A stretch of DNA of 64,000 bases from Planctomycetota bacterium. GTDB taxonomy: Bacteria > Planctomycetota > UBA1135 > GCA-002686595. The stretch's first letter is position 1. The number at the start of each line of letters is the position of its first letter. The position numbers and the translations under genes were made by a program. The stretch is taken from assembly GCA_041398665.1 (NCBI GenBank), contig JAWKUH010000006.1:130596-194595 (forward strand), read 5' to 3'. A model generated the notes under the pieces. The model ran no database searches and was not told the origin of the DNA. It saw only the letters and a program-made list of their open reading frames with translations. Shown here one piece after another: positions 1,668 to 54,542 of this stretch.

Positions 1668-4090
1668 GTGATCGAAGATCGGCGGGCGGACCGCAGAAAG
1701 GCTCGCGCCGATGCCGACAGAGGAGCGATGGGCTGGGCCCTCCTCGTCGGACTCGTGGCTGCGCTGGGTGCGGCGCTCCTCGGCGTCGCGCTGGTCCGTC
1801 GCAGTCGCCGCGAGCAGCACGGGACGCTGCACGAACGGCGCCGCGCGGAACGCACCGGTGCGGCGAGGGCGGAGCTCCAGCACCCCGTCGTCGACCTGAC
1901 GCGCTGCCTCGGGTGCGGCACGTGCGTGCGCGCGTGTCCCGAGGAGGGCGTGCTCGCGCTGCTGCACGGGCAGGCCGTCGTCGTGCGCGGCTCGGGCTGC
2001 GTCGGGACGGCGAGCTGTGCACGCGAGTGTCCGACCGGAGCGATCACGGTCACGCTCGCCGATCTCGCGACGCGGCGCGACGTGCCGGTGCTCGACGAGG
2101 GACTCGAAGCGGTGGGGCGCCCCGGTCTGTTCCTCGCGGGCGAGGTGACGGCGCACGCGCTCGTGAAGACCGCGGTCGACCACGGCACGCTGGTCGCCGC
2201 GACGGTGGCGGAGCGCGCGCAGCGCGAGGGCGCGGCGCGCGAGACCGGCGTGCTCGACCTCGCGATCGTCGGCGCGGGTCCGGGCGGACTCGCGTGCGCG
2301 CTGGAGGCGAAGCGTCTCGGGCTCGACTTCGTCCTGCTGGAGCGCGAGAGCGACCTCGGCGGCACGGTCGCGCGCTACCCGCGCCGCAAGCTCGTCGCGA
2401 CACGACCCATCGACCTCCCGCTGCACGGTCGGCTGCCCGAGCGCACCTACCTCAAGGAGGAGCTGATCGAGCTGTGGCGCGGGCTCGCCGCGGAGCACGA
2501 CCTGCCCGTCGTGTGCGACTCGACGTTCGAGTCGCTCGACCGGGACGACGCGGGCACCTACACCGTGCACGCGAGCACCGGCGAGGTGCGCGCACGCAAC
2601 GTGTGCCTCGCGATCGGGCGGCGCGGCGTGCCGAACCGGCTCGGCGTCCCGGGCGAGGACGCGCCGAACGTCGCGTACAGCCTGCTCGACGCGGACGCCT
2701 ACGAGGGCGAGCGCATCCTCGTCGTCGGCGGCGGCGACAGCGCGGTCGAGGCGGCGCTCGGTCTCACCGCGCGCGGTGCGAACGAGGTCACGCTGAGCTA
2801 CAGGCGCTCCGACTTCTTCAGGCTCGAGCCCTCGAACGAGCGCCGCATCCGCGAGGCGGCGGCGAGCGGGCGCGTCACGGTGCTGTTCGAGAGCGAGGTG
2901 CTCGAGATCGACGCGGGCGAAGTGCGCCTGCTCGCGCGTTCGGCGGACGTGGCGGGTCGCGGCACGGGCCGCACGAGCACCGACGGAGCCCCGAGCCTGG
3001 TGCCGGGCGGTCCGGGGCGCGTGCACCACGGCGCGTCGCACGAGACGCTCGAACGTCGCGTCGCCGTCTCGACCGAGGCGCGCGCCGAGCTCGTGCTGCC
3101 GTGCGACCGCGTGTTCGTGATGGTCGGCGGCACGCCGCCGATCGCACAGCTCGAGGCGGCGGGCGTCAGCTTCGACCCGACGCTGCGCCCGGCGGCGCCG
3201 GAGATCGGCGAGCAGGGCAGCGGCCTCGTCCGCGCGCTCGGCGCGGGCTTCGCCGTCGCGCTGTTCGGCCTCGCGTTCGCGCTGTGGCACCGCGACTACT
3301 ACCTCCTGCCGACGTTCGAGCGCGCGGCGTCGCCGAAGCACGACCTCCTGCGGCCCGGACTCGGACTCGGGCTGTGGCTCGGGGTCGGGTCGATCGCGCT
3401 CGTCGTCGCGAACCTCGCGTACGTGCTGCGCCGCTCGCCGCGCTCGCGCGTGCGCTTCGGGTCGCTCGCGAACTGGATGACGGTGCACGTCGCGACGGGC
3501 GTGCTCGCGCTGCTCACCGCACTCGTCCACTCCGGGATGGAGCCGCGCGACACGGTCGGGGGCCGAGCGCTGTGGGCCATGGTCGCGCTGTTCGCGACGG
3601 GAGCCGTCGGGCGCTACCTCTACGCCTACGTCCCGCGGGCGGCGAACGGGCGCGAACTCGAACTCGCCGAGATCCGCGGCCGACTCGCGCGTCTGGCGGA
3701 GGGCTTCGTCCGTGTCGACGCGCGACTCGCGGCGCTGGTGCGCGACGAGACGCTGGAGCTGGTCGAGCGGCGGCAGTGGAACACGTCGTTGCCGGCGCGC
3801 CTGCTCGCGCTCGTCGGCGCGGAGACCGGGCTGCGCCGACTTCTGCGCCGCGTGCGGACCGAGGGCGCCGCCGCCGGACTCGCGCAGGACCAGATCGACG
3901 AGGTGACGGAGCTCGCGCGCCGCGCGCACCGCTCGGCGCTCGCGACGGCGCACATCGACGACCTGCGCGGGATCATGGCGAGCTGGCGCTGGCTGCACCG
4001 CTGGGCGCGCTGCTCCTGCTCGTGCTCGTCGCGCTGCACGTGGTCTACGCGCTGGCGTACGGCGGCTACCTCGCGGGAGGCGCGCGGTGA
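1668..4090 (+). CDS. Membrane-bound fusion oxidoreductase: N-terminal TM helix, two 4Fe-4S ferredoxin-type CxxCxxCxxxCP motifs, FAD/NAD(P)-binding pyridine-nucleotide-disulfide-oxidoreductase-like domain, C-terminal 5-TM domain with conserved His. Apparent 1-nt frameshift near 4003-4008.
   Basis: Frame of ORF 1668..8069 gives CLGCGTCVRACPEEG and CVGTASCARECPTG, GAGPGG and GGGDSAVE dinucleotide-binding motifs, then TM helices (FALWHRDYY, WMTVHVATGVLALLTALVHSG). The last TM helix and stop are read in the frame of ORF 1367..4090 (LLLLVLVALHVVYALAYGGYL*). Start could alternatively be M at 1728. GTGA overlap with next gene. Confidence 0.65.
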
Positions 4091-6225
4091 ACGCCGACGA
4101 TCCGCCGCCGCCGTCCGTCGCGTGGTACCGCCGCCCGCAGTTGTGGGTCGCGGTCTGCAGCGCCGTGCTCGTCACGACGCTCGGCGTCGTCGGCAAGGAC
4201 CGCAAGTCGCCGGGTCCGCTCGCCGCGGCGCACGCGCGCGTCGCCGAGCTCGCGGGCGGTGCGAGCTGCTCGGAGTGCCACGGCGGCTGGTTCCAGGACA
4301 TGTCGAGCGCCTGTCTCGACTGTCACGAGGCGATCGAGTCGCAGATGGACGACGGGCGCGGCCTCCACGGGCGACTCGCCGAGGACCGGCGCGCGTGCGC
4401 GTCCTGCCACTCCGACCACCACGGCGCGAACTTCGCCATGGTGAACGACGTCTCGTTCCGCAAGGCGGGCGTGCCGAACGTCGACGCCTTCGACCACTCG
4501 CTCGTCGGCTTCGACATGGACGGGAAGCACGTCGAGCTGGCGTGCACGGACTGCCACGCGCACGCCTTCGACGAGGTCGTCCCGGAGGGCGTCACGCGCT
4601 TCACGGGACTCTCGCAGCGTTGCGCGGCGTGCCACGAGGACGAGCACCACGGCGCGTTCGGCCAGGACTGCGCGAGTTGCCACGTGCAGGAGAGCTTCAC
4701 CGAGCACGTCGCGACGTTCCACGACGACGTCCTCCCGCTGATCGGCGGGCACGGCGGCATGGACTGTCGCGCGTGCCACGCGGAGGGCGAGGTGCACAGC
4801 CTCGAGGTCGTCGCGGGCAACGGCTCGAAGCCGACGGCGCGCGCCTGTCTCGACTGCCACGACTCGCCGCACGGCGAGGCGTTCGTGACCCGCAACGCCC
4901 GCGACTCGCGCACCAGTCTCGAGGCGTCGTGCGTCGTCTGTCACGCCGCGGCGCACACGAGCTTCCGCGACGAGGCGCTCGAAATCACCGCGGAGCAGCA
5001 CGCGGCGTCGGGCTTCCCGCTCGCGCTGCCCCACGACGAGGTGACGTGCGACGGATGCCACGCGCCGGAGCCGGAGGACTTCGCCGCGCGCTACCCGGGT
5101 CGCGACGCCGATCGTTGCGCGGCGTGCCACGAGGACCCGCACGGCGGGCAGTTCGCGACGGGACCGTTCGCGCAAGAGGGCTGCGTCGCCTGCCACGGGC
5201 GCGAGCGCTTCGAACCGCACGGTTTCACCGCGGAACTGCACGCGCGGGCCGCCCTGCCGCTCGAGGGCGGTCACCTCGGGGCGGCGTGCGAGGACTGCCA
5301 CACCGTCGCCCACGACGGCGAACCGCGCACGTTCCGCGGCACGAGCGACACGTGCTCGGCGTGCCACGAGGACGCGCACAACGGGTTCTTCGACTCGCGC
5401 ACACAGGCGCTCGAACCGGTGGCGCACGGCGACTGCGCGCGCTGTCACGGCGCGACGGCGTTCGCGCAACTGGTGCCGGAGAGCTTCGACCACACGCGCT
5501 GGACGGGCTTCCCGGTCGACGGCGCGCACGAGGCGGAGGGCTGCGCGAGCTGTCACGCGAGCACGGCGGAGCCCGACGCCGCGGGCCGCACGTTCGGACG
5601 CGTCGCGCCCGAGCACGGCGAACTCGTCGCCATGCACGCCGGGCCCGAGGTCGGCCGCTCGTGCGCGGCCTGCCACGAGGACCCGCACGGCGGCCGCTTC
5701 GACGCGGAGGGACTGCCGGAGCGGTACGACGAGCGCGAGGGCTGCGCGCGCTGCCACACCGACGCGTCGTTCCGCGACCTCTCGCGCGGCTTCGACCACG
5801 GACTGTGGACCGGTTTCCCGCTCGACGGCGCGCACGGCGAACAGTCGTGCAGCACGTGCCACGCGCCGCTGCGCGCACCGACGACGGAGGGGCGCACGTG
5901 GGGCTTCGCGAAGGGCGCGGACTGCGCGTCGTGCCACGCCGACCCGCACGGCGGTCAGTTCCGCGAGCGCGACGCGCAGGGGACCCTCGGAGCGACGGAC
6001 TGCGCGCGCTGCCACCAGAACACGACGTCGTTCGCGAAGCTGCGCTTCCGCCACAACTGGGACTCGCGCTTCAAGCTCGACGAAACGCACGCGAAGGTGG
6101 ACTGCGCGCAGTGCCACCGCCCCGAGGTGATCTCGGGTGCGCCGACGTTCCACTACAAGCCGCTCGGAACGAATTGCACGGACTGCCACGGGGTGGGGGC
6201 GAGTTCGCTGAGGAAGGACGGGTAG
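4087..6225 (+). CDS. Periplasmic multiheme cytochrome c, about 23 CxxCH motifs, paired-CXXCH / cytochrome c7-like repeats, N-terminal signal anchor
   Basis: 712-aa ORF with roughly 23 CxxCH motifs (CSECH, CLDCH, CASCH ... CTDCH), many in CH..DxH / doubled arrangement. Hydrophobic N-terminus LWVAVCSAVLVTTLGVV without lipobox. Confidence 0.85.
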   Translation: MNADDPPPPSVAWYRRPQLWVAVCSAVLVTTLGVVGKDRKSPGPLAAAHARVAELAGGASCSECHGGWFQDMSSACLDCHEAIESQMDDGRGLHGRLAEDRRACASCHSDHHGANFAMVNDVSFRKAGVPNVDAFDHSLVGFDMDGKHVELACTDCHAHAFDEVVPEGVTRFTGLSQRCAACHEDEHHGAFGQDCASCHVQESFTEHVATFHDDVLPLIGGHGGMDCRACHAEGEVHSLEVVAGNGSKPTARACLDCHDSPHGEAFVTRNARDSRTSLEASCVVCHAAAHTSFRDEALEITAEQHAASGFPLALPHDEVTCDGCHAPEPEDFAARYPGRDADRCAACHEDPHGGQFATGPFAQEGCVACHGRERFEPHGFTAELHARAALPLEGGHLGAACEDCHTVAHDGEPRTFRGTSDTCSACHEDAHNGFFDSRTQALEPVAHGDCARCHGATAFAQLVPESFDHTRWTGFPVDGAHEAEGCASCHASTAEPDAAGRTFGRVAPEHGELVAMHAGPEVGRSCAACHEDPHGGRFDAEGLPERYDEREGCARCHTDASFRDLSRGFDHGLWTGFPLDGAHGEQSCSTCHAPLRAPTTEGRTWGFAKGADCASCHADPHGGQFRERDAQGTLGATDCARCHQNTTSFAKLRFRHNWDSRFKLDETHAKVDCAQCHRPEVISGAPTFHYKPLGTNCTDCHGVGASSLRKDG

Positions 6226-13618: not shown

Positions 13619-16501
13619 GTGACGGAGGGGAGCATGCACCGGACCGAGTCTTGTCTCGGGCGGTCGGAGGGGGCGGACGCGTTCCGTGAGGAGCGCGTCG
13701 GAACGAAGATCGAAGGTCCTGGACGCGGGCGCGCGGCGCGCGCACTGGGAGCGGTCGCGCTGGCTCTGGCCGGGATCGCGGCGACGCTCAGCGGTTGCGG
13801 CGGCGGAGGCGGCGACTCGGGCGCGCTCACGGCGCAGCTCACCTCGTCCTGCATGCTCTGCCACAACGGCGCCTCGTCCGCGCCCTACGCCGGACCGGGC
13901 ATCGAGAACCCGCACCACTTCCCGGGCGCGGAGGACCTCGACTGCGCGGTCTGCCACGGCGGAAACCCGCACGGCGAGTCGAAGGAGGAGTCGCACGTCC
14001 CTCCGCCGCCGCAGATCGGCGACCGCGCGTTCCAGGACACGAACGCGCTGGCGTACTTCAACGCGCTCACGCTGACCGGCATCGACAAGTTCCCGAACTA
14101 CACCGTCGACGGCGTCACGTACACCGGCATCGACTATCTGCAGTTCAAGAACCCCGGCGACCTGCGCGTGACGACCAGCGGTCGCGGCTGCGGACAGTGC
14201 CACGCTCCGCACTCCGACGCGGTGTCGCACTCGATGCTCGCATCGTCCGCGGGCATCTTCTCGGGCGCGTCGTTCGCGATCGGTGCGGACAACGTCGTGC
14301 CGTCGCAGGTCGGGCTGTGGGAAGACACGGCCGCCGACCTCGGTTGGCGCGCGGCGAACGACCCGGCCTTCGACGTCGGGACCGCGGCCGTCGGCGAGGT
14401 CGGGAGTCTCGAGGAGTTCCCGGTCTTCAGCGTGCGCAACAGCACGACGCCTGGCGACATCCACAACAACGACGACTACCTCGTCGACGAGCTGCTCGAC
14501 GACCAGTACGCGGACGGGCGCGTCATCACCGACTCGCCGCTGCACAAGCTCTTCATGGAGCAGGTCGCGTTCACCTGCGGCGACTGCCACCTCGGGAGCC
14601 GCGGCGCGAACAACCGCACGGGCGACTACCGCAGCTCGGGCTGCACGGCCTGCCACATGCCCTACAGCCTCGGCGGCCGGAGCGGGAGCAAGGACCCGCA
14701 CGTCGACAAGACGGAGCCGCTCGATCCCGACGACATCGACGACCCCGAACAGCCGCACGTCGCCGCGCACCGGATCGTCAGCGTCTCGAAGACGCTCTCG
14801 AACGGAACGGTCGTGCAGGGCATGGGCGACCTCACGTGCGCCGGTTGCCACCAGGGCAGCAACCGCACGGTGATGCAGTACTGGGGCATCCGGCTCGACC
14901 AGAACCGCGACGTCCAACGCCACCGCCAGTACCCGGCGAACCCCGTGACGTTCCAGACGACGCAGAACGACACCAGGCTCTTCGACCCGGTGCTCGGGAA
15001 CCACGAGTTCAACGGTCGCGACCATCGTCAGTACCTCGCGAAGGAGGACTACGACGGCGACGGTCGCGACGACACGCCGCCCGACGTGCACCACGAGGCC
15101 GGCATGGGCTGCATCGACTGCCACGGCAGCGTCGACCTGCACGGCGGCGAGGTCGGCGACGGGCGCAACGAGATCCGGTCGCGCCAGGAACAGGGCGTCG
15201 CGATCCGCTGCGAGAACTGCCACGGCACGGCGGACGCGTACGCGCCGACCGTCGCGGGGACGAACTACGCCGGAGCGAGCGGACAGCACGCCGTCGACTC
15301 GCGCGGCAACGTCCTGCGCCACGTCCGTCGCGAGGGCGACGGGAACATGTACCTCTACAGCCGTCTCGACGGCGTGAAGCACTTCGTGCCGCAGACGTTC
15401 GACACGATCGTCGACCACGGCGTCGTCGACCCGATCGGCGGCGGACCGGTCTACAGCGAGGCCGCGTCCTACGCGATGGGACGCATCGACGGCTCGCCGA
15501 GCACCGGTATCGGTCCGCAGCAGAAGAACCACGCGGCGAACGGCTTCAGCCACACCGACAGGCTGGACTGCGCGACGTGCCACGCGTCGTGGACGAACAC
15601 CTGCATGGGCTGCCACCTCGAGGGCGAGTACGACCTCGGCAACAACTTCTCGAACATCACGGGCGAGCGCATCGTGTTCAAGCAGAGGTTCGCCGACTTC
15701 GTCTACCAGTCGCCGCTGATGTTCCAGCTCGGCGTCGACCACAACGGCGAGATCGCGCAGTTCAGCGCGAACACGAAGACGTTCTTCCGCTGGGACGACA
15801 AGGCGGACGCGAGGAGCGAGGTCTTCGCCTTCTCGAACCGCAACGGCGGCGGCAACTCGCCCGTGGCGAGCTTCCCGGCCCTGTCGCACAACGCGATGAT
15901 GGCGCACTCCATCCGCGGGCGCGTCGACGCCCAGAACGAGGGGCCGCGCTACTGCGTGGCGTGCCACCTCACGGACGAGGGCATGACGAACTTCGGCGCG
16001 GACTACGCGGCGTTCCGGACCGCGATCCAGACCGGCGACTACGGCAGCCTCGACTGGACGCTGCTCCAGTCGCACATCGGCAAGAACCCCGGCAACCAGC
16101 TGAACTCGCCGATGTTCGTGCACATGGTGGCCGGACTCGGTTCGGGCATGTTCCTGTTCGACGCGGGCGGTGCGCCGATCAACGACCTCGACATCGACAC
16201 CGCGCGGAAGCCGAACAACGTCGCTCCGAAGACGGTGTACGACCCGACCAAGGTCGTCTACGACCTCGACCGCATCGTCGACGAGTCGGGCCTCTCGTTC
16301 GCGTCGAACAACCACATGCTGCTGTCGCCCGGCATGGCGAACGCGACGCGCGACGGAGCGACCGACACGAACATGGCGGGCCCGCTCGGCGTGACGCTGC
16401 TCACGCTCCTGGCGGACCCCACGGGCGGTCTCGTGCTCGACTCGTGGTACGACGCGGACGGCCTGCCGCGAGGCAATGCGTCGGACTACGTCGGTCCGTA
16501 G
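13619..16501 (+). CDS. Large lipoprotein multiheme cytochrome c (11 CxxCH), outer-membrane cytochrome candidate
   Basis: 960 aa with lipobox ATLSGCGGGGG. CxxCH motifs CMLCH, CAVCH, CGQCH, CGDCH, CTACH, CAGCH, CIDCH, CENCH, CATCH, CMGCH, CVACH. The N-region before the lipobox is unusually long, so the true start may be an internal non-ATG codon. Confidence 0.8.
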   Translation: MTEGSMHRTESCLGRSEGADAFREERVGTKIEGPGRGRAARALGAVALALAGIAATLSGCGGGGGDSGALTAQLTSSCMLCHNGASSAPYAGPGIENPHHFPGAEDLDCAVCHGGNPHGESKEESHVPPPPQIGDRAFQDTNALAYFNALTLTGIDKFPNYTVDGVTYTGIDYLQFKNPGDLRVTTSGRGCGQCHAPHSDAVSHSMLASSAGIFSGASFAIGADNVVPSQVGLWEDTAADLGWRAANDPAFDVGTAAVGEVGSLEEFPVFSVRNSTTPGDIHNNDDYLVDELLDDQYADGRVITDSPLHKLFMEQVAFTCGDCHLGSRGANNRTGDYRSSGCTACHMPYSLGGRSGSKDPHVDKTEPLDPDDIDDPEQPHVAAHRIVSVSKTLSNGTVVQGMGDLTCAGCHQGSNRTVMQYWGIRLDQNRDVQRHRQYPANPVTFQTTQNDTRLFDPVLGNHEFNGRDHRQYLAKEDYDGDGRDDTPPDVHHEAGMGCIDCHGSVDLHGGEVGDGRNEIRSRQEQGVAIRCENCHGTADAYAPTVAGTNYAGASGQHAVDSRGNVLRHVRREGDGNMYLYSRLDGVKHFVPQTFDTIVDHGVVDPIGGGPVYSEAASYAMGRIDGSPSTGIGPQQKNHAANGFSHTDRLDCATCHASWTNTCMGCHLEGEYDLGNNFSNITGERIVFKQRFADFVYQSPLMFQLGVDHNGEIAQFSANTKTFFRWDDKADARSEVFAFSNRNGGGNSPVASFPALSHNAMMAHSIRGRVDAQNEGPRYCVACHLTDEGMTNFGADYAAFRTAIQTGDYGSLDWTLLQSHIGKNPGNQLNSPMFVHMVAGLGSGMFLFDAGGAPINDLDIDTARKPNNVAPKTVYDPTKVVYDLDRIVDESGLSFASNNHMLLSPGMANATRDGATDTNMAGPLGVTLLTLLADPTGGLVLDSWYDADGLPRGNASDYVGP

Positions 16502-16504
16502 GTC

Positions 16505-16625
16505 GCGCGGGACGAATCACAGGGAGCCGGGGCGGGCGGGGAGACGCCACGCGATCCGTCGCGTTCGACGCTCCCCGGCCTCCCCGGCTCCCTGTGATTC
16601 GCGTGGTCCGGCGCCGCAGCCGACG
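16505..16625. repeat. Intergenic repeat element copy A: 30-bp imperfect inverted repeat (gaatcacagggagccggggcgggcggggag / ctccccggcctccccggctccctgtgattc) plus conserved tail gtggtccggcgccgcagccg. Between convergent genes; probable bidirectional terminator.
   Basis: Arms at ~16514-16543 and ~16571-16600 with a 27-bp spacer. Same modules recur at ~41045-41215. Confidence 0.6.
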
Positions 16626-16639
16626 GACCAGCGGCGGAC

Positions 16640-18184
16640 TCAGTTGTGCAGCGACTCCGTGCGCTTCACGAGCAGGCCCTTGAGCCGGCCCATGACGTTG
16701 CTGTGGATCTGGCAGACGCGGCTCTCCGTGAGCGCCAGCATCTCGCCGATCTCGCGCATCGTGTGGCCGTACTGGTAGTACTGCTCGATGATGAAGCGCT
16801 CCTTGTGCGTGAGGGAGCGCGTGATGAACTTCATCAGGTCGCGGCGGTTGAGCTCGTGGACGGGGTCCACCGCGTCGTGGTCCTCGAGGACCTCGACCTT
16901 CTCGACCGCGCCGTCCTCGTCGTCGTCCCACTTCTCCGAGAGGGAGAACATGGCCTTCGCCTGGGACTCGTTGAGCTCCTTCGCGAGCTCGTCGTGCGTC
17001 ATGCCGAGCACTTTCGCGAGCTCGGAGTGGGTCGGCTCGCGCCCGAACTCGCCGGTGAGCTGCTGGAGCGCGCGTTCGATCCGGCTCCACTTGATGCGCA
17101 CGAGGCGCGGCACCCAGTCCTGCGAGCGCAGTTGGTCGAGGATCGAGCCGCGGATGCGGGTCGAGCAGTAGGTCTTGAACTTGATGCCGCGGTCCGGGTC
17201 GAAGCCGCGGATCGCGTCCATCAGTCCGAACTGCCCCGCGCTGACGAGGTCGTCCAGCTCGATCGACTTGGGCAGCGTCTGGAGCAGGCGCTCCGCGATG
17301 TAGCGCACGAGCGGGTAGTGGCGCTCGATCAGCTCGTTGCGCAGTCGCTCCAGCTCGGGCGACGTGATCTCGCGCTTGCGCGACGTGACCTCGGGCGAGT
17401 CCTTGGTGACGCCGAGCTCCTCGGCCATCTCGACCATGAGCCGATCGCTCTCGACCCGGTAGGCGTCCCACAGGTCGTCCGTCGAGACGTCCGCCATCTC
17501 GTCGTCCGGCGGTTCGACGTCGACGGAGTCGTCCTCCTCCTCGATCTCCTCGGCCTCCGCCTCGGAAGCCTCGAGTTCCTGGTCGACGGCCGCCTCGGCG
17601 TCCTCGTCGGTGCGCATGAGTTCGGCCGGTTCCGTGCGCTCCTCCGACCGCGACCTGGACGGCAGCGCGGCCTTGGCCTCCTTCGCCGGCTTCGCCGCGG
17701 CCTTCTTCGACGAGCCGGCCGCCTTCGTGGCGGCCCCCGACTTCGACGAACCGGTGGCGCCGGCGGCCTTCGTCGACTTCGCGGCGGCTCGGCCGCGGGC
17801 GCGCTCGGGCACGATCTCGTTGGTCTCCGTCAACTCGACCTCGGTCCTGCTCTTCGACTTCGTGTTCTTGGAAGCGGCGCTCGCCGACTTCTTCTTCGAG
17901 GACCCGGTCTTCGCCTTCGGCGCCGGCTTCGCGGACCCGGCGGCAGCCGACTTCGCAGGCTTCGACGCCTTCGAAGTCGCTTTCGCGGGTGCCTTCGCGC
18001 CGGCCTTCTTCGCGCCGGCGGAGCTCTTCGCGACCTTGCTCGCGGACTTGCTCGCCGAGCCCTTCGACGCCGCGTTCGACCTCGTGGTCGAGCCGCGCGA
18101 CGCGGTGCTCGGGGAAGCTTTGGTCGACCGCTTCTTCGAGCGATCGGCGGACGTGCTGCGGGCGGAAGAGCGCTCGGCGGCCAT
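16640..18184 (-). CDS. FliA/WhiG-family (sigma-28-like) RNA polymerase sigma factor with ~280-aa Lys/Ala/Ser-rich histone-H1-like N-terminal extension and acidic linker
   Basis: C-terminal half has FliA-type regions 2 and 4 (DLVSAGQFGLMDAIRGFDPDRGIKFKTYCSTRIRGSILDQLRSQDWVPR, TMREIGEMLALTESRVCQIHS). N-terminus is AK(S/P)-rich low complexity (AKKAGAKAPAKATSKASKPAK...) then EEIEEEDD. Confidence 0.8.
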   Translation of the reverse strand: MAAERSSARSTSADRSKKRSTKASPSTASRGSTTRSNAASKGSASKSASKVAKSSAGAKKAGAKAPAKATSKASKPAKSAAAGSAKPAPKAKTGSSKKKSASAASKNTKSKSRTEVELTETNEIVPERARGRAAAKSTKAAGATGSSKSGAATKAAGSSKKAAAKPAKEAKAALPSRSRSEERTEPAELMRTDEDAEAAVDQELEASEAEAEEIEEEDDSVDVEPPDDEMADVSTDDLWDAYRVESDRLMVEMAEELGVTKDSPEVTSRKREITSPELERLRNELIERHYPLVRYIAERLLQTLPKSIELDDLVSAGQFGLMDAIRGFDPDRGIKFKTYCSTRIRGSILDQLRSQDWVPRLVRIKWSRIERALQQLTGEFGREPTHSELAKVLGMTHDELAKELNESQAKAMFSLSEKWDDDEDGAVEKVEVLEDHDAVDPVHELNRRDLMKFITRSLTHKERFIIEQYYQYGHTMREIGEMLALTESRVCQIHSNVMGRLKGLLVKRTESLHN

Positions 18185-18265
18185 GGTGGATCCCGTCCCT
18201 GCGCGTTCGACCCTGAACCCGCGGGGACGTCAAGGATCGGGCATCCGCCGGAAAAACCTTCGGCC

Positions 18266-18775
18266 CTATTCGACGCGCAGGAGCGAATGGACGGGAATCG
18301 CGCCCAGTTTCCCCCGGCCGGGAAGGAAGGCCAGCTCGATCACGAACGAGCAGGCGACCGGTTCACCGCCGACCCGGCGGACGAGTTTGAGGCCGGCTTC
18401 CATCGTCCCGCCCGTCGCGAGCAGGTCGTCGACCATGAGCACGCGCTTGCCCTCGCAGGCGTCGACGTGGATCTCGATCGTGTCGGTGCCGTACTCGAGT
18501 TCGTACGACTCCGCCGCCGTCTTCCAGGGCAGCTTGCCGGGCTTGCGGATCGGCACGAATCCCTTGTCGAGCTGGCGCGCCAACGCCGTTCCGAAGATGA
18601 AGCCGCGCGACTCGATCCCGCACACGATGTCGTACGACGCGGGGTCGACCGACCTGGCCATGAGGTCGATCGTCGTGCGCAGACCCTCGGCGCTCTGGAG
18701 GAGCGGCGTGATGTCCTTGAAGACGATGCCGGGCTTCGGGAAGTCGGGGACGTCGCGGATGAACTTCTCGATCAC
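18266..18775 (-). CDS. apt: Adenine phosphoribosyltransferase
   Basis: 169 aa. PRPP-binding motif [16 protein letters not shown], typical APRT length and N-terminus. Confidence 0.9.
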
Positions 18776-18940
18776 GATGGGGAGCTCGGTGGGGGGTCAG
18801 CGGGGAGCCGTCGCGGTCCGACGAGGGTAGCGGAAGCCGTCGTCCCGGGGCCCGACGAGCATCGGCTCGCGACGAGTCCGGACTCCACCGCCCCGGGCCC
18901 GCCGCCCTCGACGCGGCCCGGAGCGGGTCCGCCGACCGCG

Positions 18941-20707
18941 TCACATCGCGTCGACGGGCTCGACGCCGAGCGTGCGCAACCCCGCGCTCATCACCTGCTC
19001 CGTCGCGCGCACGAGCGCGAGCCGCGCGTCGCGCAGCGCCGGCTCGGCCTTGAGCACCGGGCAGTCGTGGTAGAAGCGGCTGAACGTCTTGGCGCCGTCG
19101 AACAGCCAGTTCGCGAGGTGCGACGGGTCGCAGGTCGACTCGACCTGAGCGAGCACGCGCGGGTAGCGCAGGAGGTGCCCGAGGAGGGCGCGCTCCGCGA
19201 GTTCGCCGAAGCCGGACTCCGCGCGCGCCGCCGCCGCGAGGTCGAGCGCCGCCGCGCCGTCCGCGCGACGGAAGATGCCGGAGATGCGCGCGAGGCTGTA
19301 GAGCAGGTACGCGCCCGACTCGCCCTCGAGGTTCGTCCAGGCGTCGACGTCGAAGATCACGCGCGTCGTGTTCGCGACCTGGAGCATGCCGTAGCGCAGA
19401 CACGCCACCGCGACGCGGTCGACGGTCTCGCTCCACTTCTCCTCGCTCCAGCCGGAGCGCGTGTCGCGCTCGTCCTCGCGCATCTTCGTCTCGATCGCCT
19501 CGCGCAGGACGCGGCGCAGCTCGAAGAACGGGATGACCTTGCCCTTGCGGCTCGACATCTTGCCCTCGGGCAGCATGACGAGCTCGTAGGCGACGTGGCG
19601 GCAGTCCTTGGCGCGCTCGTAGCCCATGCGCTCGAGCGTCGCGAAGAGTTGTTTGAAGTGGTAGGTCTGCTCCGAGCCGACGACGTAGAGCGAGCGCTCG
19701 ACGCCGAACTCGTCGAACTTGCGCCGCGCGAGCACGAGGTCCCAGGTCAGGTAGAGGCTCGTGCCGTCGGACTTGCGCACGAGCGCCGGTCCCAGGTCGT
19801 AGTCGTCGAGCATGCAGACGATCGCGCCCTGGCTGTGCTCGAACACGCCGCGCTCGAGGTACTCGTCGACGATCGCCTGACCGGGTTCCTCGAGCTCGGA
19901 CTCGTAGAAGTCGGTGTCGAAGCGGACGTCGAGCCAGCGGTACACCTCGGCGAACTCGTCGAGGCACCACTGCCGCGTCTCCTCGTAGAGGTCGGCGTAG
20001 CCCGGCTCGCCGCTCTTGATCTTCTCGAGGATCTCGCGCAGCTCGGTGTGCAGCGCCTCGAACGCGGGTCGGTCGTTCGCCTCGAGCTCCGCGAGGTGCG
20101 CCGTCGTGCTCGCGTAGGCCTTGCCGAGCCAGGCGCCGCGCTCCTCGGCGGGCGGGTCGCCGACGTCGCGGTGCTTCAGCCACCACAGACACTTCGCGAC
20201 GTCGACACCGAAGTCGCCGTAGTAGTTGGCGGCGACGACCTCGTGGCCGCGCGCGCGGAAGACGCGCTGCAGCGCGTCGCCGACCGCGACGTTGCGGAGG
20301 TGGCCGACGTGGAAGACCTTGTGCGTGTTCGGCTGCGAGAACTCGACCATGACCTTCTCGCGCGCGCCGCTGCGGCAGCTCTCCGCGAAGCTGCCGTCCT
20401 CGACCGACGCGAGCAGGTCGGCGAGCAGGACGCCGGGGTGCGCGAAGAAGTTGAGGTAGGGGCCGGCCGCCTCGACGCGCTGGATCGCGCCGCCGGTCGC
20501 GACCTTGGTCGCGAGATCCGCGGCGATCGCGGGCGGAGCCTTCCGAAGCGCCTTCGCGAGCGTGAAGACCGGGAACGCGAGGTCGCCCTTGCTCGGGTCC
20601 GGCGGGTGCGACAAGGCCTTCGACAGAGCGTCGCGGTCCGGCGCTCCGTCGAGGCCGGAGAGAGCGTTCGTGAGGGCGTCGAGCACCTCGTCGCGGAAGT
20701 CGATCAT
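18941..20707 (-). CDS. argS: Arginine--tRNA ligase
   Basis: 588 aa. Class-I HIGH-type motif SQPNTHKVFHVGHLRNVAVGD and C-terminal DALR-like anticodon-binding region. Confidence 0.9.
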   Translation of the reverse strand: MIDFRDEVLDALTNALSGLDGAPDRDALSKALSHPPDPSKGDLAFPVFTLAKALRKAPPAIAADLATKVATGGAIQRVEAAGPYLNFFAHPGVLLADLLASVEDGSFAESCRSGAREKVMVEFSQPNTHKVFHVGHLRNVAVGDALQRVFRARGHEVVAANYYGDFGVDVAKCLWWLKHRDVGDPPAEERGAWLGKAYASTTAHLAELEANDRPAFEALHTELREILEKIKSGEPGYADLYEETRQWCLDEFAEVYRWLDVRFDTDFYESELEEPGQAIVDEYLERGVFEHSQGAIVCMLDDYDLGPALVRKSDGTSLYLTWDLVLARRKFDEFGVERSLYVVGSEQTYHFKQLFATLERMGYERAKDCRHVAYELVMLPEGKMSSRKGKVIPFFELRRVLREAIETKMREDERDTRSGWSEEKWSETVDRVAVACLRYGMLQVANTTRVIFDVDAWTNLEGESGAYLLYSLARISGIFRRADGAAALDLAAAARAESGFGELAERALLGHLLRYPRVLAQVESTCDPSHLANWLFDGAKTFSRFYHDCPVLKAEPALRDARLALVRATEQVMSAGLRTLGVEPVDAM

Positions 20708-21130: not shown

Positions 21131-23119
21131 TCAGGACCAGTTCGCCCAGGTCTCGTTCTTCTCCTCGAGGTCGCGCTCGATCTCGGCCAGCCGGTACTGC
21201 CGCTCGACGAGGGCCTCGTGGTCGCGGTAGACCTCCTCGCTCTGCATCTCGCGGGTCAGGCGCTCCTTCTCCTCCTCGAGCGCCATGATCTCCTTCTCGA
21301 GCTTCTCGAAGAGGTAGGGATTGCGGACGCGCTGGCCGCCCTGGTTCTTGGGTTGGTTCTTTGCAGCCTTCGCCGGCGCAGCGGCGGCCTGCTGCGGCTT
21401 CGGCGCGGGTTGCGGCGCGGGCTTCGACTTCCTGGCCTGCTCGGGCTTCGGCGGCGCCGGCTGCGGCTTGCTCGCCTTCGCCGCGGCCGCGGCCCTGCGA
21501 TCCACCTCGGCCGCACGCTCCGCCTCGATGGCCGCGCGGTACTCCGAGTAGTTGCCCCGGAACTCGCGGAAGCCCTTCGGCCCGAGCTCCCACACCTTGT
21601 TGCAGAGGTTGTCCATGAACTCCCGGTCGTGGCTGATGCACAGCATCGCCCCCGGGAAGCCGGACAGCATCTCCTCGAGCGCGGTCCGCGCCGCGAGGTC
21701 GAGGTGGTTCGTCGGCTCGTCGAGCGCGAGCCACGTCGGCTTGGAACCGATCAGCCTGGCCAGCGCGACGCGCGCGCGCTCGCCGCCGGACAGGCGGCCG
21801 ATCTCCGCGTCCACGTCGTCGCCGCGGAACAGGAACAGCGCGAGGTGGCTGCGGATCTCCTCGTCCGTCGCCGTCGGCCAGTCCTTGCGCATCGTCGTGA
21901 ACGGCGTCGCCGCGGGATCGAGGTCGCCCGACTCCTGGTCGAAGTAGCCGACCTCGGCCTTGTGACCCTTCTTCACCTCGCCGGCGAGCGGCGCCTTCTT
22001 CTCGCACAGCGTGCGCATCAGCGTGGTCTTGCCCGCGCCGTTCGGACCGACCAGGGCGATGCGGTCGCCGCGAGCGATGCGCAGCTCGAGTCCCTTCGCT
22101 AGCACGTTGGCGCCGTGCCCGATCGAGAGGTCCTCGCAGGACACGATCGTCTCCCCCGAACGCTCGACCTGTGTGAGCCTCAGGATGGGCTTGCGCACGT
22201 CGTCGTAGGGCCGCTCGAGCCGTTCGACGCGCTGGAGCCGTTTCTGCCGGCCCTTCGCCTCGGACGTCCGCTGGCTGCCCATGTGCTTCTTGATGAACTG
22301 TTGTTCCTTGCGGATCTTGTCGCGCTGGATCTCCCAGGCGCGCAGTTCGCTCGCGAAGCGTTCCTGCCTCAGGTCGACGTACTTGTTGTAGTTGCCGGGG
22401 TAGCGGCGGAGCTGGCCCCACTCGAGCTCGACGATCACCGTCACCACGCGGTCGAGCATCCGACGGTCGTGGCTGATGAGCATCAGCGCGCCGCGGTACT
22501 CGCGCAGGTAGTTCTCGAGCCACTCGATGCCCTCGAGGTCGAGGTGGTTCGTCGGCTCGTCGAGCATCAGGAGGTCGGGCCGACGCACGAGTTCGCGCGC
22601 CATCGCGACGCGCGCCTTCTCGCCGCCCGAGAGCGTCCGCGCCTCGCGCTCCCACAGCTCGCGCGACAGCCCGATGCCGTCGAGGACGACCTCGGCCTGG
22701 CGCTCCGCGTTCCAGCCGTCGAGGAGGTCGATCTGCTCGGTGACGCGGCCGAAGCGCTCCACCGCGCGCTCGAGCGCCTCGCCCTCGTACTCCGCGAGGT
22801 GCGACTCGAGGTCCTTGGCCTCGGCCAGCAGGGTCTTCACCTCGTCGAGTCCGTGCTCGACATACTCGAACGCGCGCACGCCGGGCTCGAACTCGGGCCT
22901 CTGCGCGACGTAGCCGACGCGGGTGCCGCGCGGCACGGTCAGCTCGCCGCGCTCCGGCGGCTCGATGCCCGCGGCGATGCGCATCATCGTCGTCTTGCCG
23001 CCGCCGTTGCGACCGACGACGCCGACCTTCTCGCCCGCCTCGATGGCGAGGTCGAGGCCGCGCAGGACCTCGAGCGCCCCGAAGTGCTTCTCGAGGCCGC
23101 GGATGATGAGGACGCTCAC
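21131..23119 (-). CDS. ABC-F family ATPase (two ABC domains, no TM; Uup/EttA-like translation factor)
   Basis: Two Walker A (GRNGGGKTT, GPNGAGKTT), two signatures (LSGGEKARV, LSGGERARV), inter-domain linker, C-terminal coiled-coil with PAPKP-rich spacer. Confidence 0.9.
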   Translation of the reverse strand: MSVLIIRGLEKHFGALEVLRGLDLAIEAGEKVGVVGRNGGGKTTMMRIAAGIEPPERGELTVPRGTRVGYVAQRPEFEPGVRAFEYVEHGLDEVKTLLAEAKDLESHLAEYEGEALERAVERFGRVTEQIDLLDGWNAERQAEVVLDGIGLSRELWEREARTLSGGEKARVAMARELVRRPDLLMLDEPTNHLDLEGIEWLENYLREYRGALMLISHDRRMLDRVVTVIVELEWGQLRRYPGNYNKYVDLRQERFASELRAWEIQRDKIRKEQQFIKKHMGSQRTSEAKGRQKRLQRVERLERPYDDVRKPILRLTQVERSGETIVSCEDLSIGHGANVLAKGLELRIARGDRIALVGPNGAGKTTLMRTLCEKKAPLAGEVKKGHKAEVGYFDQESGDLDPAATPFTTMRKDWPTATDEEIRSHLALFLFRGDDVDAEIGRLSGGERARVALARLIGSKPTWLALDEPTNHLDLAARTALEEMLSGFPGAMLCISHDREFMDNLCNKVWELGPKGFREFRGNYSEYRAAIEAERAAEVDRRAAAAAKASKPQPAPPKPEQARKSKPAPQPAPKPQQAAAAPAKAAKNQPKNQGGQRVRNPYLFEKLEKEIMALEEEKERLTREMQSEEVYRDHEALVERQYRLAEIERDLEEKNETWANWS

Positions 23120-23244
23120 GGTCGTTCCTTGTCGTTCGTCGGTCCCGCCGCGAGCGTTCTCGCCGCCGAATCGGGCGGAAGAGGATAGCAGGGGACGCGA
23201 CCCGATCGCAGCGTCGCGCGCTCCCGGTCGCTATCCTGCGCGGC

Positions 23245-38151: not shown

Positions 38152-38309
38152 TGCGACGCAAGTCGTTGCCCTGGCGTGGTTTGCATGGTGCTCGCCGGGC
38201 CGCCGTCGCGCGCGCGCGGCGCGGCGCCGACTTGGAACCCGCCGCCGCGATCTGGTAGCGGTGTACGGCTCGGTCCGCCGGACGAACGCCCAGAGAACCC
38301 CACCCGCAC

Positions 38310-40997
38310 GTGGTCAAGAAGAACGCAGACGGCATCACCCTCGTCATCGTCGAGTCGCCCACCAAGGCCAAGACGATCACGGGCTTCCTCCCCAAGGGGT
38401 ACGTGGTGGAGGCGTCCGTGGGCCACGTCCGCGACCTGCCCACCTCCGCCAAGGAGATCCCGGCCTCCCACAAGGGCGAGAAGTGGGCGCGCCTCGGCAT
38501 CGACATCGACAACGACTTCGCGCCGCTCTACGTGGTGCCGCAGTCGAAGAAGGAGCAGGTCCGGAAGCTCAAGGACCTCGTCAAGCAGGCGGACGAGATC
38601 TATCTCGCGACCGATGAGGACCGCGAGGGCGAGTCGATCTCGTGGCACCTCATGGAGGTGTTGCAGCCCAAGGTGAAGCCGAAGCGCCTCGTGTTCCACG
38701 AGATCACGCGCGAGGCCATCCACGAGGCGCTCGAGCACCCGCGCGACCTCCACGAGGGTCTGGTGCAGGCGCAGGAGACGCGGCGCCTGCTCGACCGCCT
38801 CTACGGCTACGAGGTGTCGCCGATCCTGTGGAAGAAGATCGGTCCCGGTCTCTCCGCGGGGCGCGTGCAGTCGGTCGCCGTGCGACTGATCGTGCAACGC
38901 GAGCGCGAGCGCAAGTCCTTCCGTCGCGCGACGTACTGGGACCTCGTCGGGAGCTTCGCGGCGCCGCAGGGGCGCTTCGACGCGACGCTCGTCACGGTCG
39001 ACGGCAAGCGCGTCGCGTCGGGTCGCGACTTCGACCCCGACACCGGACTCCTCTCGGCCGGTTCGAACGCGCTGTGGATCGACGAAGCGGGTGCCCAGTC
39101 GCTCATCGACGAACTGCGCGACGTCGCCTGGTCCGTCGAGTCGATCGAGAGCAAACCGTTCACCGAGCGGCCGAGCCCGCCGTTCACGACGTCGACGCTG
39201 CAGCAGGAGTCGAACCGCAAGTTGCGCCTCAGCGCGCGCGACACCATGCGGGCCGCGCAGCGACTCTACGAGAGCGGCTTCATCACCTACATGCGTACGG
39301 ACTCGACGACTCTCAGCGAGCAGGCCCTCGGCCACACGCGCGAGCAGATCGAACGGTTGTACGGCAAGGACTACCTGCCCGCCGAACCGCGCCGCTACAA
39401 GACGAAGGTCCAGAACGCGCAGGAGGCGCACGAGGCGATCCGTCCGGCCGGCGACTTCAGGACGCCCGACGACGTGCGCAAGCAGGTCGGTGCCGACGAG
39501 GCCCGCGTCTACGAGCTCATCTGGAAGCGCACGATGGCGTGCCAGATGGCCGACGCGAAGGGGCACCGCGTCACGCTCAAGGTGAAGGGCGGTCGCGCCG
39601 TCATGCAGACCTCGGGCAAGACCATCGACTTCCCGGGCTTCCTGCGCGCCTACGTCGAGGGCGCCGACGACCCGGAGGCGGAGCTCGCGGACAAGGAGAC
39701 CGTGCTGCCCGCCGTGACCGCGGGTCAGTCCGTCGACTGCGAGAAGCTGGTCGCCAAGGACCACACGACGCAGCCGCCAGCGCGCTACACCGAGGCGTCG
39801 CTCGTGAAGGAGCTCGAGTCGAACGGCGTGGGTCGCCCCAGCACGTACGCCTCGATCATCGACACGATCCTGAGGCGCGAGTACGTCGTGAAGCAGAGCA
39901 ACGCGCTCGTCCCGACGTTCACGGCGTTCGCCGTCGTCGGACTGCTCGAACGCCACTTCGAGAACCTCGTCGACGTCGAGTTCACGGCGCGCATGGAGAG
40001 CGACCTCGACCGCGTCTCGCTCGGCGAGATCGAGTCGACGCCGTACCTGCGCTCCTTCTACTTCGGGAACGGTCAGCCGGGCCTCAAGGACCTGCTCGTG
40101 CAGGAGATCGACCCGCGCGAGGCCTGCACGTTGCCGCTCGGCGAGGACGAGCAGGGCCGCACGATCAACGTGCGCGTCGGTCGTTACGGTCCGTACCTCG
40201 AGCGCGGCGACGAACGCGCGAGCATCCCGGAGGGGACGCCGCCCGACGAGATCACGCTCGAGCACGCGACGCTGCTGCTCGAGCGCGGCTCGGGACCGCA
40301 GGAGCTCGGGACGCATCCCGAGAGCGGCGAACCGGTGTTCCTGAAGTCCGGTCGCTTCGGCCCGTACGTCCAGCTCGGGACCGGCGACGACGGCGAGAAG
40401 CCGAAGATGAAGTCGCTCTTCCCCGGCATGGTGCCGGAGGAGGTCGACCTCGAGACCGCGCTCCGACTGCTGTCGATGCCGCGCACCGTCGGCACGCACC
40501 CGGAGAACGGCGAGCCGATCCTCGCCGACCTCGGTCGCTACGGTCCGTACCTGCGCTGCGGCAGCGAGACGCGCAGCCTCCAGACCCCCGAGCAGATCTT
40601 CGCGATCGACGTCGACGAGGCGCTGAAGATCCTCGCCACGGAGAAGCGCGGAGGTCGCCGCGGCACGCCCGAGGTGCTGAAGGACCTCGGTGCGGAGGAC
40701 GGCGGCGAGCCGGTGAAGCTGCTGAAGGGCCGCTACGGTCCCTACGTCACCGACGGCACGACGAACGCGTCGCTGCCGAAGGACCGCGAGCCGGACGGCG
40801 TGACGCTCGCCGAGGCGCGCGAGTGGCTGGCGGCCCGAGCCGCCGCCGGTCCGCGCAAGAAGAAGCGCTCGGCGAAGAAGACGTCGACCAAGAAGACCGC
40901 GAAGAAGGCGGCCAAGAAGGCGACGAAGAAGGCGGCCGGGAAGAAGACCGCCAAGAAGGCCGCGAAGAAGGCCGCCAACAAGTCGGCCGACGCGTAG
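38310..40997 (+). CDS. topA: DNA topoisomerase I with Lys/Ala-rich histone-H1-like C-terminal tail
   Basis: Toprim N-terminus (LVIVESPTKAKTI), active-site region GFITYMRTDS, C-terminal repeats, tail KKKRSAKKTSTKKTAKKAAKKATKKAAGKKTAKKAAKKAANK. Confidence 0.9.
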   Translation: MVKKNADGITLVIVESPTKAKTITGFLPKGYVVEASVGHVRDLPTSAKEIPASHKGEKWARLGIDIDNDFAPLYVVPQSKKEQVRKLKDLVKQADEIYLATDEDREGESISWHLMEVLQPKVKPKRLVFHEITREAIHEALEHPRDLHEGLVQAQETRRLLDRLYGYEVSPILWKKIGPGLSAGRVQSVAVRLIVQRERERKSFRRATYWDLVGSFAAPQGRFDATLVTVDGKRVASGRDFDPDTGLLSAGSNALWIDEAGAQSLIDELRDVAWSVESIESKPFTERPSPPFTTSTLQQESNRKLRLSARDTMRAAQRLYESGFITYMRTDSTTLSEQALGHTREQIERLYGKDYLPAEPRRYKTKVQNAQEAHEAIRPAGDFRTPDDVRKQVGADEARVYELIWKRTMACQMADAKGHRVTLKVKGGRAVMQTSGKTIDFPGFLRAYVEGADDPEAELADKETVLPAVTAGQSVDCEKLVAKDHTTQPPARYTEASLVKELESNGVGRPSTYASIIDTILRREYVVKQSNALVPTFTAFAVVGLLERHFENLVDVEFTARMESDLDRVSLGEIESTPYLRSFYFGNGQPGLKDLLVQEIDPREACTLPLGEDEQGRTINVRVGRYGPYLERGDERASIPEGTPPDEITLEHATLLLERGSGPQELGTHPESGEPVFLKSGRFGPYVQLGTGDDGEKPKMKSLFPGMVPEEVDLETALRLLSMPRTVGTHPENGEPILADLGRYGPYLRCGSETRSLQTPEQIFAIDVDEALKILATEKRGGRRGTPEVLKDLGAEDGGEPVKLLKGRYGPYVTDGTTNASLPKDREPDGVTLAEAREWLAARAAAGPRKKKRSAKKTSTKKTAKKAAKKATKKAAGKKTAKKAAKKAANKSADA

Positions 40998-41040: not shown

Positions 41041-41235
41041 CAGGTTCACAGGGAGCCGGGGAGGACGGGGAGGAAGGCCCGTTCGTCGTTCCGCAACTCG
41101 ACGAATCCAGCGACTCGACGTCACCGCGCGCCGCAGCGGCTCATCGATCGCCGACAACGTTCGACCTCCCCGTCCTCCCCGCCTCCCTGTGATTCGTGTG
41201 GTCCGGCGCCGCAGGCGCCGTTCGGGCGGAGGAGG
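41041..41235. repeat. Intergenic repeat element copy D: 28-bp inverted repeat (tcacagggagccggggaggacggggagg / cctccccgtcctccccgcctccctgtga) separated by ~90 bp, plus tail gtggtccggcgccgcaggcgccgttcgggc
   Basis: Arms ~41045-41073 and ~41165-41195. Shares the modules of copy A and the ccgttcgggc module of copy B. Confidence 0.6.
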
Positions 41236-54329: not shown

Positions 54330-54542
54330 GTGGGTCTTCCGGGAGATTCGGGCGGGCGGCAGCGTACTCTGAGCGGCCCGCGTCGCGACCCGCGACGCGC
54401 CGTTCGCGACCCGACGTCCGTGCTCGCCGCCGACTTCCGACCCGAGACGCTCCGCGCTCCCTCCGACCGTCGTCACGACGCTCGTCGAGGCGTCCCTCCC
54501 GCCGCACCGCGCCGACGGAGGACCGCTCTCGTCGTCGCGTCG

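Follow-up and report, generated by a model that had tools for sequence, protein, structure and literature searches.

Results

A sigma factor gene of 514 codons lies directly downstream of apt

This study concerns a sigma factor gene of a planctomycete, which is located on the minus strand at positions 16640..18184 of a 64,000-nucleotide (nt) stretch of contig JAWKUH010000006.1 (assembly GCA_041398665.1, positions 130,596 to 194,595 of the forward strand); this whole stretch is referred to as the window. An earlier note on this DNA had described the gene product as a FliA/sigma-28-type sigma factor with a long, histone-H1-like N-terminal extension. The complete coding sequence, as deduced from the list of open reading frames (ORFs), the GC content at third codon positions (GC3) and the N-termini of orthologues, starts with ATG and comprises 514 amino acids (aa) followed by a TGA stop codon. 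It is preceded, after an intergenic spacer of 81 nt (18185..18265), by apt, encoding an adenine phosphoribosyltransferase (18266..18775, Pfam Pribosyltran), with argS (18941-20707) and abcF (21131-23230) further upstream, all on the minus strand. Neither a sigma-70 promoter nor a terminator was detected between apt and the sigma gene by consensus scan, which is weak evidence.

The DNA has a GC content of ~72%, at which long open frames carry little weight. GC3 in the sigma frame was 0.91-0.98 over the full ORF and 0.91-0.96 within its N-terminal tail. The ATG at 18184 is the earliest possible start, as an in-frame TGA stop is found 48 nt further upstream. The public NCBI protein from this metagenome-assembled genome (MAG), P0001, has only 397 aa; it is 100% identical over 77% of the ORF, begins with MTETNEIV and uses an internal TTG (Leu118, 17831..17833, minus strand). 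The N-terminus of the full ORF (MAAERS...) agrees with that of the orthologues P0002, P0003, P0005 and P0007, which start with M[AP]AER[ST]. Because of these orthologue N-termini and the spacing between apt and the ATG, the start at 18184 is favored, and the 397-aa call looks truncated. For the orthologue of strain Pla163 (P0004) a protein of 313 aa (MSESEVNTAE...) was called, whose start aligns inside the 506-aa P0002. Judging by the two calls, gene callers appear to cut off the low-complexity N-termini of these genes. Expression of two isoforms via an internal Met229 was considered and rejected, since Met229 is not conserved. On the opposite strand, an ORF of 456 aa (17463-18830, plus strand, GC3 0.91) overlaps apt and the sigma tail; although it passes a GC3 filter, it almost certainly merely mirrors these two genes, as shadow frames do in DNA of high GC content.

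The core is that of a FliA/WhiG-family sigma factor

Three sigma-70 domains were found in order, each above its Pfam gathering cutoff: region 2 (PF04542, aa 285-357, 17114..17332, E 1.2e-17), region 3 (PF04539, aa 366-443, 16856..17089, E 7.3e-10) and region 4 (PF04545, aa 457-502, 16679..16816, E 1.1e-12), all on the minus strand. The protein scored 234.2 bits with the NCBIfam model TIGR02479 (FliA_WhiG, cutoff 189.6) and 204.8 with the FliA subfamily model NF005413 (cutoff 201), and stayed under every cutoff of the NCBIfam equivalog models for WhiG, SigD and chlamydial sigma-28. Its top relatives of solved structure were Streptomyces WhiG (6pfv, E 4e-45) and Escherichia coli FliA (6pmi, E 4e-41). 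In an ungapped alignment with chain 6pmi_F, residues D350, R353 and R360 lie opposite D81, R84 and R91 of E. coli FliA, a correspondence of residue identity only; these region 2.4/3.0 residues of E. coli FliA are the ones that we take to read the sigma-28 -10 element. Region 2 is almost invariant within the clade. The three Pfam regions together with TIGR02479 bear out the proposed membership of the FliA/WhiG family, and with 514 aa, compared to 250-290 aa in typical relatives, the protein indeed has about twice the normal length. The ORF is a single genuine protein of FliA/WhiG type, and the observation from which the earlier note started is thereby confirmed.

The extension consists of a basic tail, an acidic block and a conserved helix

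The first 185 residues (17630..18184, minus strand) form a polybasic tail with a net charge of +34, which is rich in Ala (25%), Ser (21%) and Lys (17%) and further contains 8% Thr, 7% Arg and 4.3% Pro; Ser and Thr together account for 29%. The Lys content of 17.3% compares with 2.4% in the 27 other ORFs of the window (binomial P ~2e-18), and the Lys/Arg ratio of 2.5 with 0.24. With 3.8% hydrophobic residues the tail falls on the disordered side of the Uversky boundary, and an AlphaFold2 (AF2) model from a 114-sequence alignment gave a predicted local distance difference test score (pLDDT) below 50 and no secondary structure for aa 1-228, compared to a pLDDT above 90 for aa 231-300. No DNA tandem repeats were detected in the tail by Tandem Repeats Finder (TRF), so that recent slippage or tandem-repeat expansion was rejected as its origin. 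Residues 1-234 did not match any Pfam family, HC2 included, even at E <= 10, and the tail alone had no significant relative in the PDB, including the SigA and HrdB chains.

C-terminal to the tail lies an acidic block (aa 186-234, 17483..17629, minus strand) with 47% Asp and Glu and a net charge of ~-22; for aa 186-245 the net charge is -25. The acidic EEIEEEDD patch noticed earlier between a basic low-complexity extension and region 2 was located in this block at aa 212-219 (nt 17528-17551). Across aa 1-234 the charges are segregated with z = 5.6, beyond all 1000 shuffles.

From aa 235 onwards (aa 235-284, 17333..17482, minus strand) the sequence returns to a pattern shared by the family. A helix opens with TDDLWDAY, and the corresponding motif TxxLWxxY (aa 235-242) was found in 118/121 homologues. 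AF2 predicted helices at 235-257, 264-268 and 276-288 with a pLDDT of 91-97. The spacing between LW and LRN is 46 aa, compared to a median of 25 in homologues, corresponding to a clade-specific spacer that is 21 aa longer. Because the family-wide helix begins at aa 235, the non-canonical part of the extension measures ~228-234 aa and not 280 aa as had been estimated.

The likeness to histone H1 holds for composition only. The tail is Lys/Ala-rich and cationic, as described in the earlier note, and is predicted to be disordered. However, no match to H1 or HC2 and no repeats were found, SPKK or (S/T)(A/T)AKK repeats are absent from the tail, and proline is not enriched (4.3%, under the window background of 6%), with the AKP motif occurring only twice. 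The tail is therefore A/S/K-rich and not AKP-rich. Orthologues with tails of the KKAAKK type (P0106, P0072 and P0037) reached 15-27 bits with HC2 (PF07382), for which the cutoff is 40.

Orthologues carry the tail in frame at a conserved locus

The 120 best homologues were all planctomycetal FliA/WhiG proteins of 282-587 aa, and nearly all had Lys-rich N-termini. When one genome per species was scanned, at least 570 related stretches were obtained, the best 80 of which were used as loci. In 79/80 loci the gene immediately upstream, in the same orientation, is apt, in most cases with argS and abcF before it, and the same gene order was also seen in L081, L085 and L087. By these comparisons at least several hundred planctomycetal genomes carry a predicted tailed sigma factor directly downstream of apt.

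The gap between apt and the sigma gene could be analyzed in 73 of the 80 loci. The first in-frame ATG followed the apt stop at a median distance of 33 nt, which leaves the gap filled by the ORF, and the segment ahead of the LW motif had a length of 0-338 aa (median 55) with a median Lys content of 17%. It was net positive in 64/73 loci, at genome GC contents of 57-75%. Tail and core share one frame in 72/73, and in none is the tail a separate gene; apparent long-gap loci were due to GTG-type starts, an overshooting heuristic or, in one case (L070), a frameshift. The long form is not limited to one assembly, as P0007 (490 aa) was called, with the same neighbors, on 11 contigs assembled independently of one another. 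As one possible refutation, the earlier note had named a separate upstream gene joined to the core by a frameshift. The upstream gene turned out to be apt, whose own stop lies 81 nt away, and the frame is kept in 72/73 species. Nor do orthologues lack the extension, as an assembly artefact would imply, since they carry it and the long form recurs on 11 contigs. Frameshift, fusion and assembly artefact were consequently rejected on the basis of synteny, frame conservation and independent contigs.

Some loci deviated from this pattern. In L070 (~5343-6001, a long-read MAG) the MSAKKQ... N-terminus is out of frame with the remaining tail and the core, an apparent frameshift that is due either to an assembly indel or to a real pseudogenising event. 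In L002 (4942-5632), from a close relative with an 86% identical core, the tail has only ~80 aa and is acidic overall; ~690 nt between apt and the sigma start hold no recognisable ORF and may be what is left of a longer tail since lost, or some other element. Tandem duplicates of the apt-linked gene were found in L083 (4326-5243 and 6004-6981) and L084 (8343-9260 and 10001-10978), in the order apt, 305-aa sigma, 325-aa sigma; in this lineage argS and abcF are inverted. In the second copy (P0283/P0130 group) the tail is rich in Arg and Pro instead of Lys.

The core is conserved in sequence and the tail in composition

Over the 80 loci the sigma core was 72-90% identical (median 77.8%). In 62/78 loci it was more conserved than apt, and abcF and argS reached ~50% and ~34%. 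The tail gave no tblastn match in any of the 80 loci, even at 90% core identity, and a small AALP island (aa 172-175), present in 18/121 homologues, is confined to the nearest relatives. A 30-aa window with a net charge of at least +8 was present in 99/120 homologues and an acidic window of -8 or less in 26/120. Where both blocks occur, the basic one is N-terminal to the acidic one in 20/20. As the bias toward Lys, and toward Lys over Arg, opposes the background of a ~72% GC genome, these data point to selection on the composition of the tail, though not on its sequence.

The core was searched exhaustively against 1.8 billion cluster representatives. Lys-rich tails were concentrated in a clade at least 62% identical to the core. 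Relatives at 39-55% identity mostly had 250-290 aa, with xxLWxxY 20-50 aa from the N-terminus, and long extensions of more distant relatives were not Lys-rich. The tailed sub-lineage includes the OM190/"Saltatorellus" group, with the cultured members Engelhardtia mirabilis Pla133 (393 aa, 82-aa tail), Saltatorellus ferox Poly30 (306 aa, 48-aa tail) and strain Pla163. FliA of Gemmata obscuriglobus, with 258 aa, is tail-less and not apt-linked; its close homologue P0133 is 52% identical to the core. Because Gemmata FliA has neither tail nor apt linkage, the distribution indicates that the Lys-rich tail is a trait of a large sub-lineage of the Planctomycetota and not of the whole phylum. No published account of a planctomycetal FliA tail was found in the literature searched.

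Lys-rich segments are confined to few protein classes

A Lys/Ala-rich tail had also been reported for TopA in the same window, and this was confirmed: the topA ORF (38259-40997, plus strand) ends with ...KKKRSAKKTSTKKTAKKAAKKATKKAAGKKTAKKAAKKAANK. The protein comprises Toprim, Topoisom_bac and four Toprim_C_rpt repeats followed by a Lys-repeat tail (KKTAKKAAKKATKK...). The combination of Toprim_C_rpt with a Lys-repeat C-terminus has been described as characteristic of actinobacterial TopA (PMC5714199); a C-terminus of this type is found here in a planctomycete. The Lys repeats of Streptomyces TopA are reported to stabilise its complex with DNA (PMC5714199). A third Lys-containing segment, a K/P/A/Q-rich linker ahead of the C-terminal domain, is present in the ABC-F ATPase (21131-23230, minus strand) upstream of argS.

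Among 647 coding-like ORFs from the ~80 loci, only sigma (45) and ABC-F (11; L001, L004, L014 and others) had Lys-rich segments. The suggestion that the lineage habitually appends such tails therefore holds in a narrower form: sigma, TopA and ABC-F carry them, but no other class does in the 647 ORFs, and a general, proteome-wide habit was rejected. ABC-F proteins are a ribosome-binding family, and all three Lys-rich carriers bind nucleic acids or the ribosome. This selectivity argues for a polyanion-binding function of the segments.

The apt-linked sigma factor need not be the flagellar one

The 64-kb window proved to contain neither flagellar nor chemotaxis genes. Sigma-28-type promoters were not above chance in the window, as the consensus (TAAA-N15-GCCGATAA-type) had 1 match compared to 3.9 expected, and a second count gave 22 compared to 20.5. 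The neighbors of the apt-linked sigma gene are housekeeping genes (abcF-argS-apt), at other loci too. In Pla133, argS is followed by a hypothetical gene, apt and sigma, with birA, rph, rdgB and lepA further downstream, and this orthologue is located at 1.03 Mb, away from the flagellar cluster. More generally, the apt-linked gene lies outside the flhF-flhG-fliA cluster and always downstream of apt/argS; a place in or beside that cluster, together with an FlgM anti-sigma partner, is typical of the FliA/WhiG family but does not strictly define it.

For the cultured relatives, complete flagellar gene sets in two clusters have been described (10.1101/817700). A distinct "FliA-like protein" (Pla133_51230, Pla163_36140) is encoded beside FlhG, FlhF and FlhA, and an FlgM-like protein and sigma-54 are listed together with it (10.1101/817700 Table S3). 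From gene context and the published table, the Pla133 and Pla163 genomes very probably encode two FliA/WhiG-type sigma factors. Two further proteins were considered as the flagellar-cluster paralogue of Pla133/Pla163 and rejected: P0130 is the tandem duplicate of the apt-linked gene described above, and P0133 is a short Gemmataceae FliA, neither apt-linked nor in a flagellar cluster. The FliA/sigma-28 label of the earlier note thus stands as a family assignment, whereas its flagellar meaning is uncertain in view of the housekeeping context and the other FliA-like gene in the cluster. A flagellar role of the apt-linked sigma factor is doubtful, and it need not be the flagellar one. Automatic annotation as "flagellar sigma FliA" may be wrong for the apt-linked gene, given that the flagellar cluster of related isolates contains a FliA-like gene of its own.

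Other features of the window

Between the convergent sigma and cytochrome genes lies a palindrome (16513..16601) with arms of 31 nt (CGAATCACAGGGAGCCGGGG...) that are 94% complementary. Its arm recurs just downstream of topA (41042-41196), and in all 4 arm copies were counted, compared to 0.01 expected by chance. This element could belong to a family of bidirectional terminators or be similar to repetitive extragenic palindromic (REP) or miniature inverted-repeat transposable elements (MITE). Two large multihaem c-type cytochromes with MtrC/MtrF-like domains are encoded at 3907-6225 and 13619-16501 (both plus strand), one of which is convergent with the sigma gene. Similar cytochromes were seen downstream in L081, and they may represent an extracellular-electron-transfer-like module of this planctomycete. 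In the MutS frame (51645-55703, minus strand; 1352 aa from stop to stop) domain II begins at residue 612 and domain I was not detected, indicating either a true start far downstream or a long, unusual N-terminal region.

Discussion

A proposed electrostatic tether with an acidic gate

Sigma factors of group 3 are "minimal" sigmas without an N-terminal domain. The protein described here combines the conserved core of such a factor with a Lys-rich, disordered tail, which may act as an electrostatic tether, and with an acidic block, which may act as a gate or mask; we give this explanation as a whole a probability of about one half. The core would provide RNA polymerase with sigma-28-type promoter specificity, and the polycationic tail would add a sequence-independent electrostatic affinity for nucleic acid. 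In this way the tail could keep free sigma or the holoenzyme on the nucleoid, contact promoter-flanking DNA, or both, and thereby alter how open complexes form or how the holoenzyme is recycled. Tethered immediately ahead of the helix that docks on sigma2, the acidic block might serve as a region-1.1-like gate. Alternatively, as long as sigma is free, it could act within the molecule as a counter-ion and shield either the tail or the DNA-binding surfaces. We infer this mechanism by analogy because the layout nearly coincides with that of the N-terminal extension of mycobacterial sigmaA (sigmaA_N), with TopA and DdbA as further precedents. Nucleoid tethering and autoinhibition, both suggested in the earlier note, are plausible.

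Several observations weigh against the tether and gate. The tail is not conserved in sequence, varies in length from ~20 to 340 aa and is almost missing in a few members, a variability that would also fit a weakly selected low-complexity expansion. The acidic block is present in only ~1/5 of the homologues and is consequently not essential to the basic mechanism of the clade. AF2 shows no confident contact between tail and core. Finally, Ser and Thr make up an unusually large share of the tail (29%), and regular KK repeats, as found in proven H1-like DNA binders, are missing from it.

The most serious competitor, though in our view an unlikely one, is that the tail is a tolerated, near-neutral low-complexity expansion, such as an entropic bristle or solubility tag, without a specific part in DNA binding or regulation, the length of which drifts by slippage and indels. 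In favor of this reading, the tail is unalignable even between species with a 90% identical core, ranges in length from ~0 to 338 aa, with L039, L040 and L013 nearly tail-less, and has no conserved motif except the AALP island in 18/121 homologues. Against neutral drift it can be said that a Lys-rich, net-positive composition has been kept in hundreds of species (64/73 loci) against a strong GC/Arg bias, that the order of basic and acidic segments is fixed, that segments of this type are limited to nucleic-acid and ribosome binders among 647 ORFs, and that recent DNA tandem repeats, a sign of slippage, are absent. A different proposal, to which we assign a distinctly low probability, regards the tail not as a DNA tether but as a regulatory module: it could act in cis as an anti-sigma, bind a partner, serve as a degron, or undergo Ser/Thr phosphorylation or Lys acetylation that switches the activity of sigma. 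Its argument is that such control is needed because the sigma gene sits in a constitutive housekeeping operon: the tight spacing between apt and sigma, within which the scan detected neither a promoter nor a terminator consensus, suggests that sigma is transcribed together with housekeeping genes. The tail offers 29% Ser and Thr and 17% Lys as potential sites, charge-segregated polyampholytes can fold back on themselves, and for the Lys-rich Streptomyces protein HupS, acetylation of Lys reportedly tunes its affinity for DNA (PMC11229371). However, a conserved linear motif, phosphosite or degron was not identified in the tail, AF2 did not dock it onto sigma2 or sigma4, and the FlgM-like gene in cultured relatives indicates that an anti-sigma factor acting in trans may exist.

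The polycation may also have a partner other than duplex DNA and bind RNA or polyphosphate, or drive condensates with RNA polymerase; we regard this as improbable. It is consistent with a report that the H1-like AlgP acts on polyphosphate granules (PMC9239181), and with the fact that the other Lys-rich segment in the loci belongs to ABC-F, a family of ribosome binders. Yet DNA is the natural polyanion partner of a sigma factor, and the analogue sigmaA_N is located at the DNA entry channel. Scarcely credible, finally, is an annotation or assembly artefact, in which translation would begin at an internal start (the TTG at aa 118, Met190 or Met229) or a separate gene would have been fused by a frameshift. 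The short NCBI calls, 397 aa here and 313 aa for Pla163, and the occurrence of long open frames by chance at a GC content of at least 70% could be taken in its favor. Opposed to it are the conserved M[AP]AER[ST] start, the lack of conservation of Met229, the preservation of the frame in 72/73 species including genomes of 57-61% GC, the end of apt 81 nt upstream, and the independent calls of the long form on 11 contigs.

As to what the apt-linked gene controls, our proposal is tentative and perhaps doubtful. The apt-linked protein might be a second sigma-28-family factor, near-universal in this planctomycetal lineage and encoded in a constitutive housekeeping operon, whose activity is set post-translationally by the tail through nucleoid association or charge masking, and which serves a non-flagellar regulon. 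In that case, the regulon could concern the cell cycle, budding or development, as for sigma-28 of Chlamydia and WhiG of Streptomyces, and the FliA-like gene beside flhF and flhG would be responsible for the flagellum. The interest of the system would rise if the apt-linked gene proved to be such a non-flagellar second sigma-28.

Comparison with known systems

The sigma2-3-4 core is shared with the canonical FliA, SigD and WhiG proteins, as represented by E. coli FliA (6pmi), the Aquifex FliA-FlgM complex (1rp3) and the WhiG-RsiG complex (6pfv), and the N-terminal xxLWxxY helix is shared with WhiG/SigD-like members. One difference lies in the N-terminus: typical FliA/WhiG relatives have 250-290 aa with 20-50 aa ahead of region 2, and the protein described here is twice as long.

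Lys/Ala-rich, disordered appendages on proteins that act on DNA or RNA polymerase are likewise found in the H1-like tails of Streptomyces TopA, DdbA, HupS/Hlp, chlamydial Hc1/Hc2 and AlgP. For a factor that binds RNA polymerase, DdbA is a direct precedent: its H1-like N-terminal domain is fused to DksA and binds and condenses DNA (PMC3643593). In contrast to these proteins, the tail of the apt-linked sigma factor has no regular repeats, is Ser-rich, has a lower Lys density (17%) and does not match HC2 or linker histone.

The acidic block occupies a position equivalent to that of region 1.1 of E. coli sigma-70, which is acidic, lies ahead of region 1.2/2, and autoinhibits the free factor and gates the DNA channel (PMC5511352). 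Region 1.1, however, is a folded three-helix domain, whereas the block is predicted to be disordered, is found in ~20% of the clade and is preceded by a polycation.

The nearest analogue of the whole extension is sigmaA_N of Actinobacteria (SigA of Mycobacterium tuberculosis (Mtb) and M. smegmatis, HrdB of Streptomyces). It is a disordered extension of 160-225 aa, variable in length and restricted to a clade, and it shares with the extension described here a basic half, an acidic half and a conserved helix running into the core; phmmer alignments to the HrdB and SigA chains extend into the low-complexity parts. Mycobacterial sigmaA_N has been described as a disordered chain that is positive in its first half and negative in its second, with a single conserved helix that connects it to region 1.2; it is positioned where DNA enters the channel, and a role in licensing DNA entry was proposed for it (PMC5511352). 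Deletion of the 205-aa Mtb extension cuts the steady-state Vmax ~100-fold (PMC11888270). There are also clear differences: SigA and HrdB are housekeeping sigma factors of group 1, whereas the core described here is FliA/WhiG and not RpoD, the two extensions have no sequence homology, and mycobacterial sigmaA_N acts beside an Actinobacteria-specific beta' insertion. By analogy, the same layout probably follows the same logic as in actinobacterial sigmaA. Its origin is independent, within a group of sigma factors that as a rule have no N-terminal domain. The apt-linked sigma factors thus represent a second, unrelated case of the disordered polycation-polyanion-helix layout, on a small and highly conserved core, and would offer a clean comparative system for the role of charge-segregated tails in promoter search, open-complex formation and sigma recycling, next to that of actinobacterial sigmaA.

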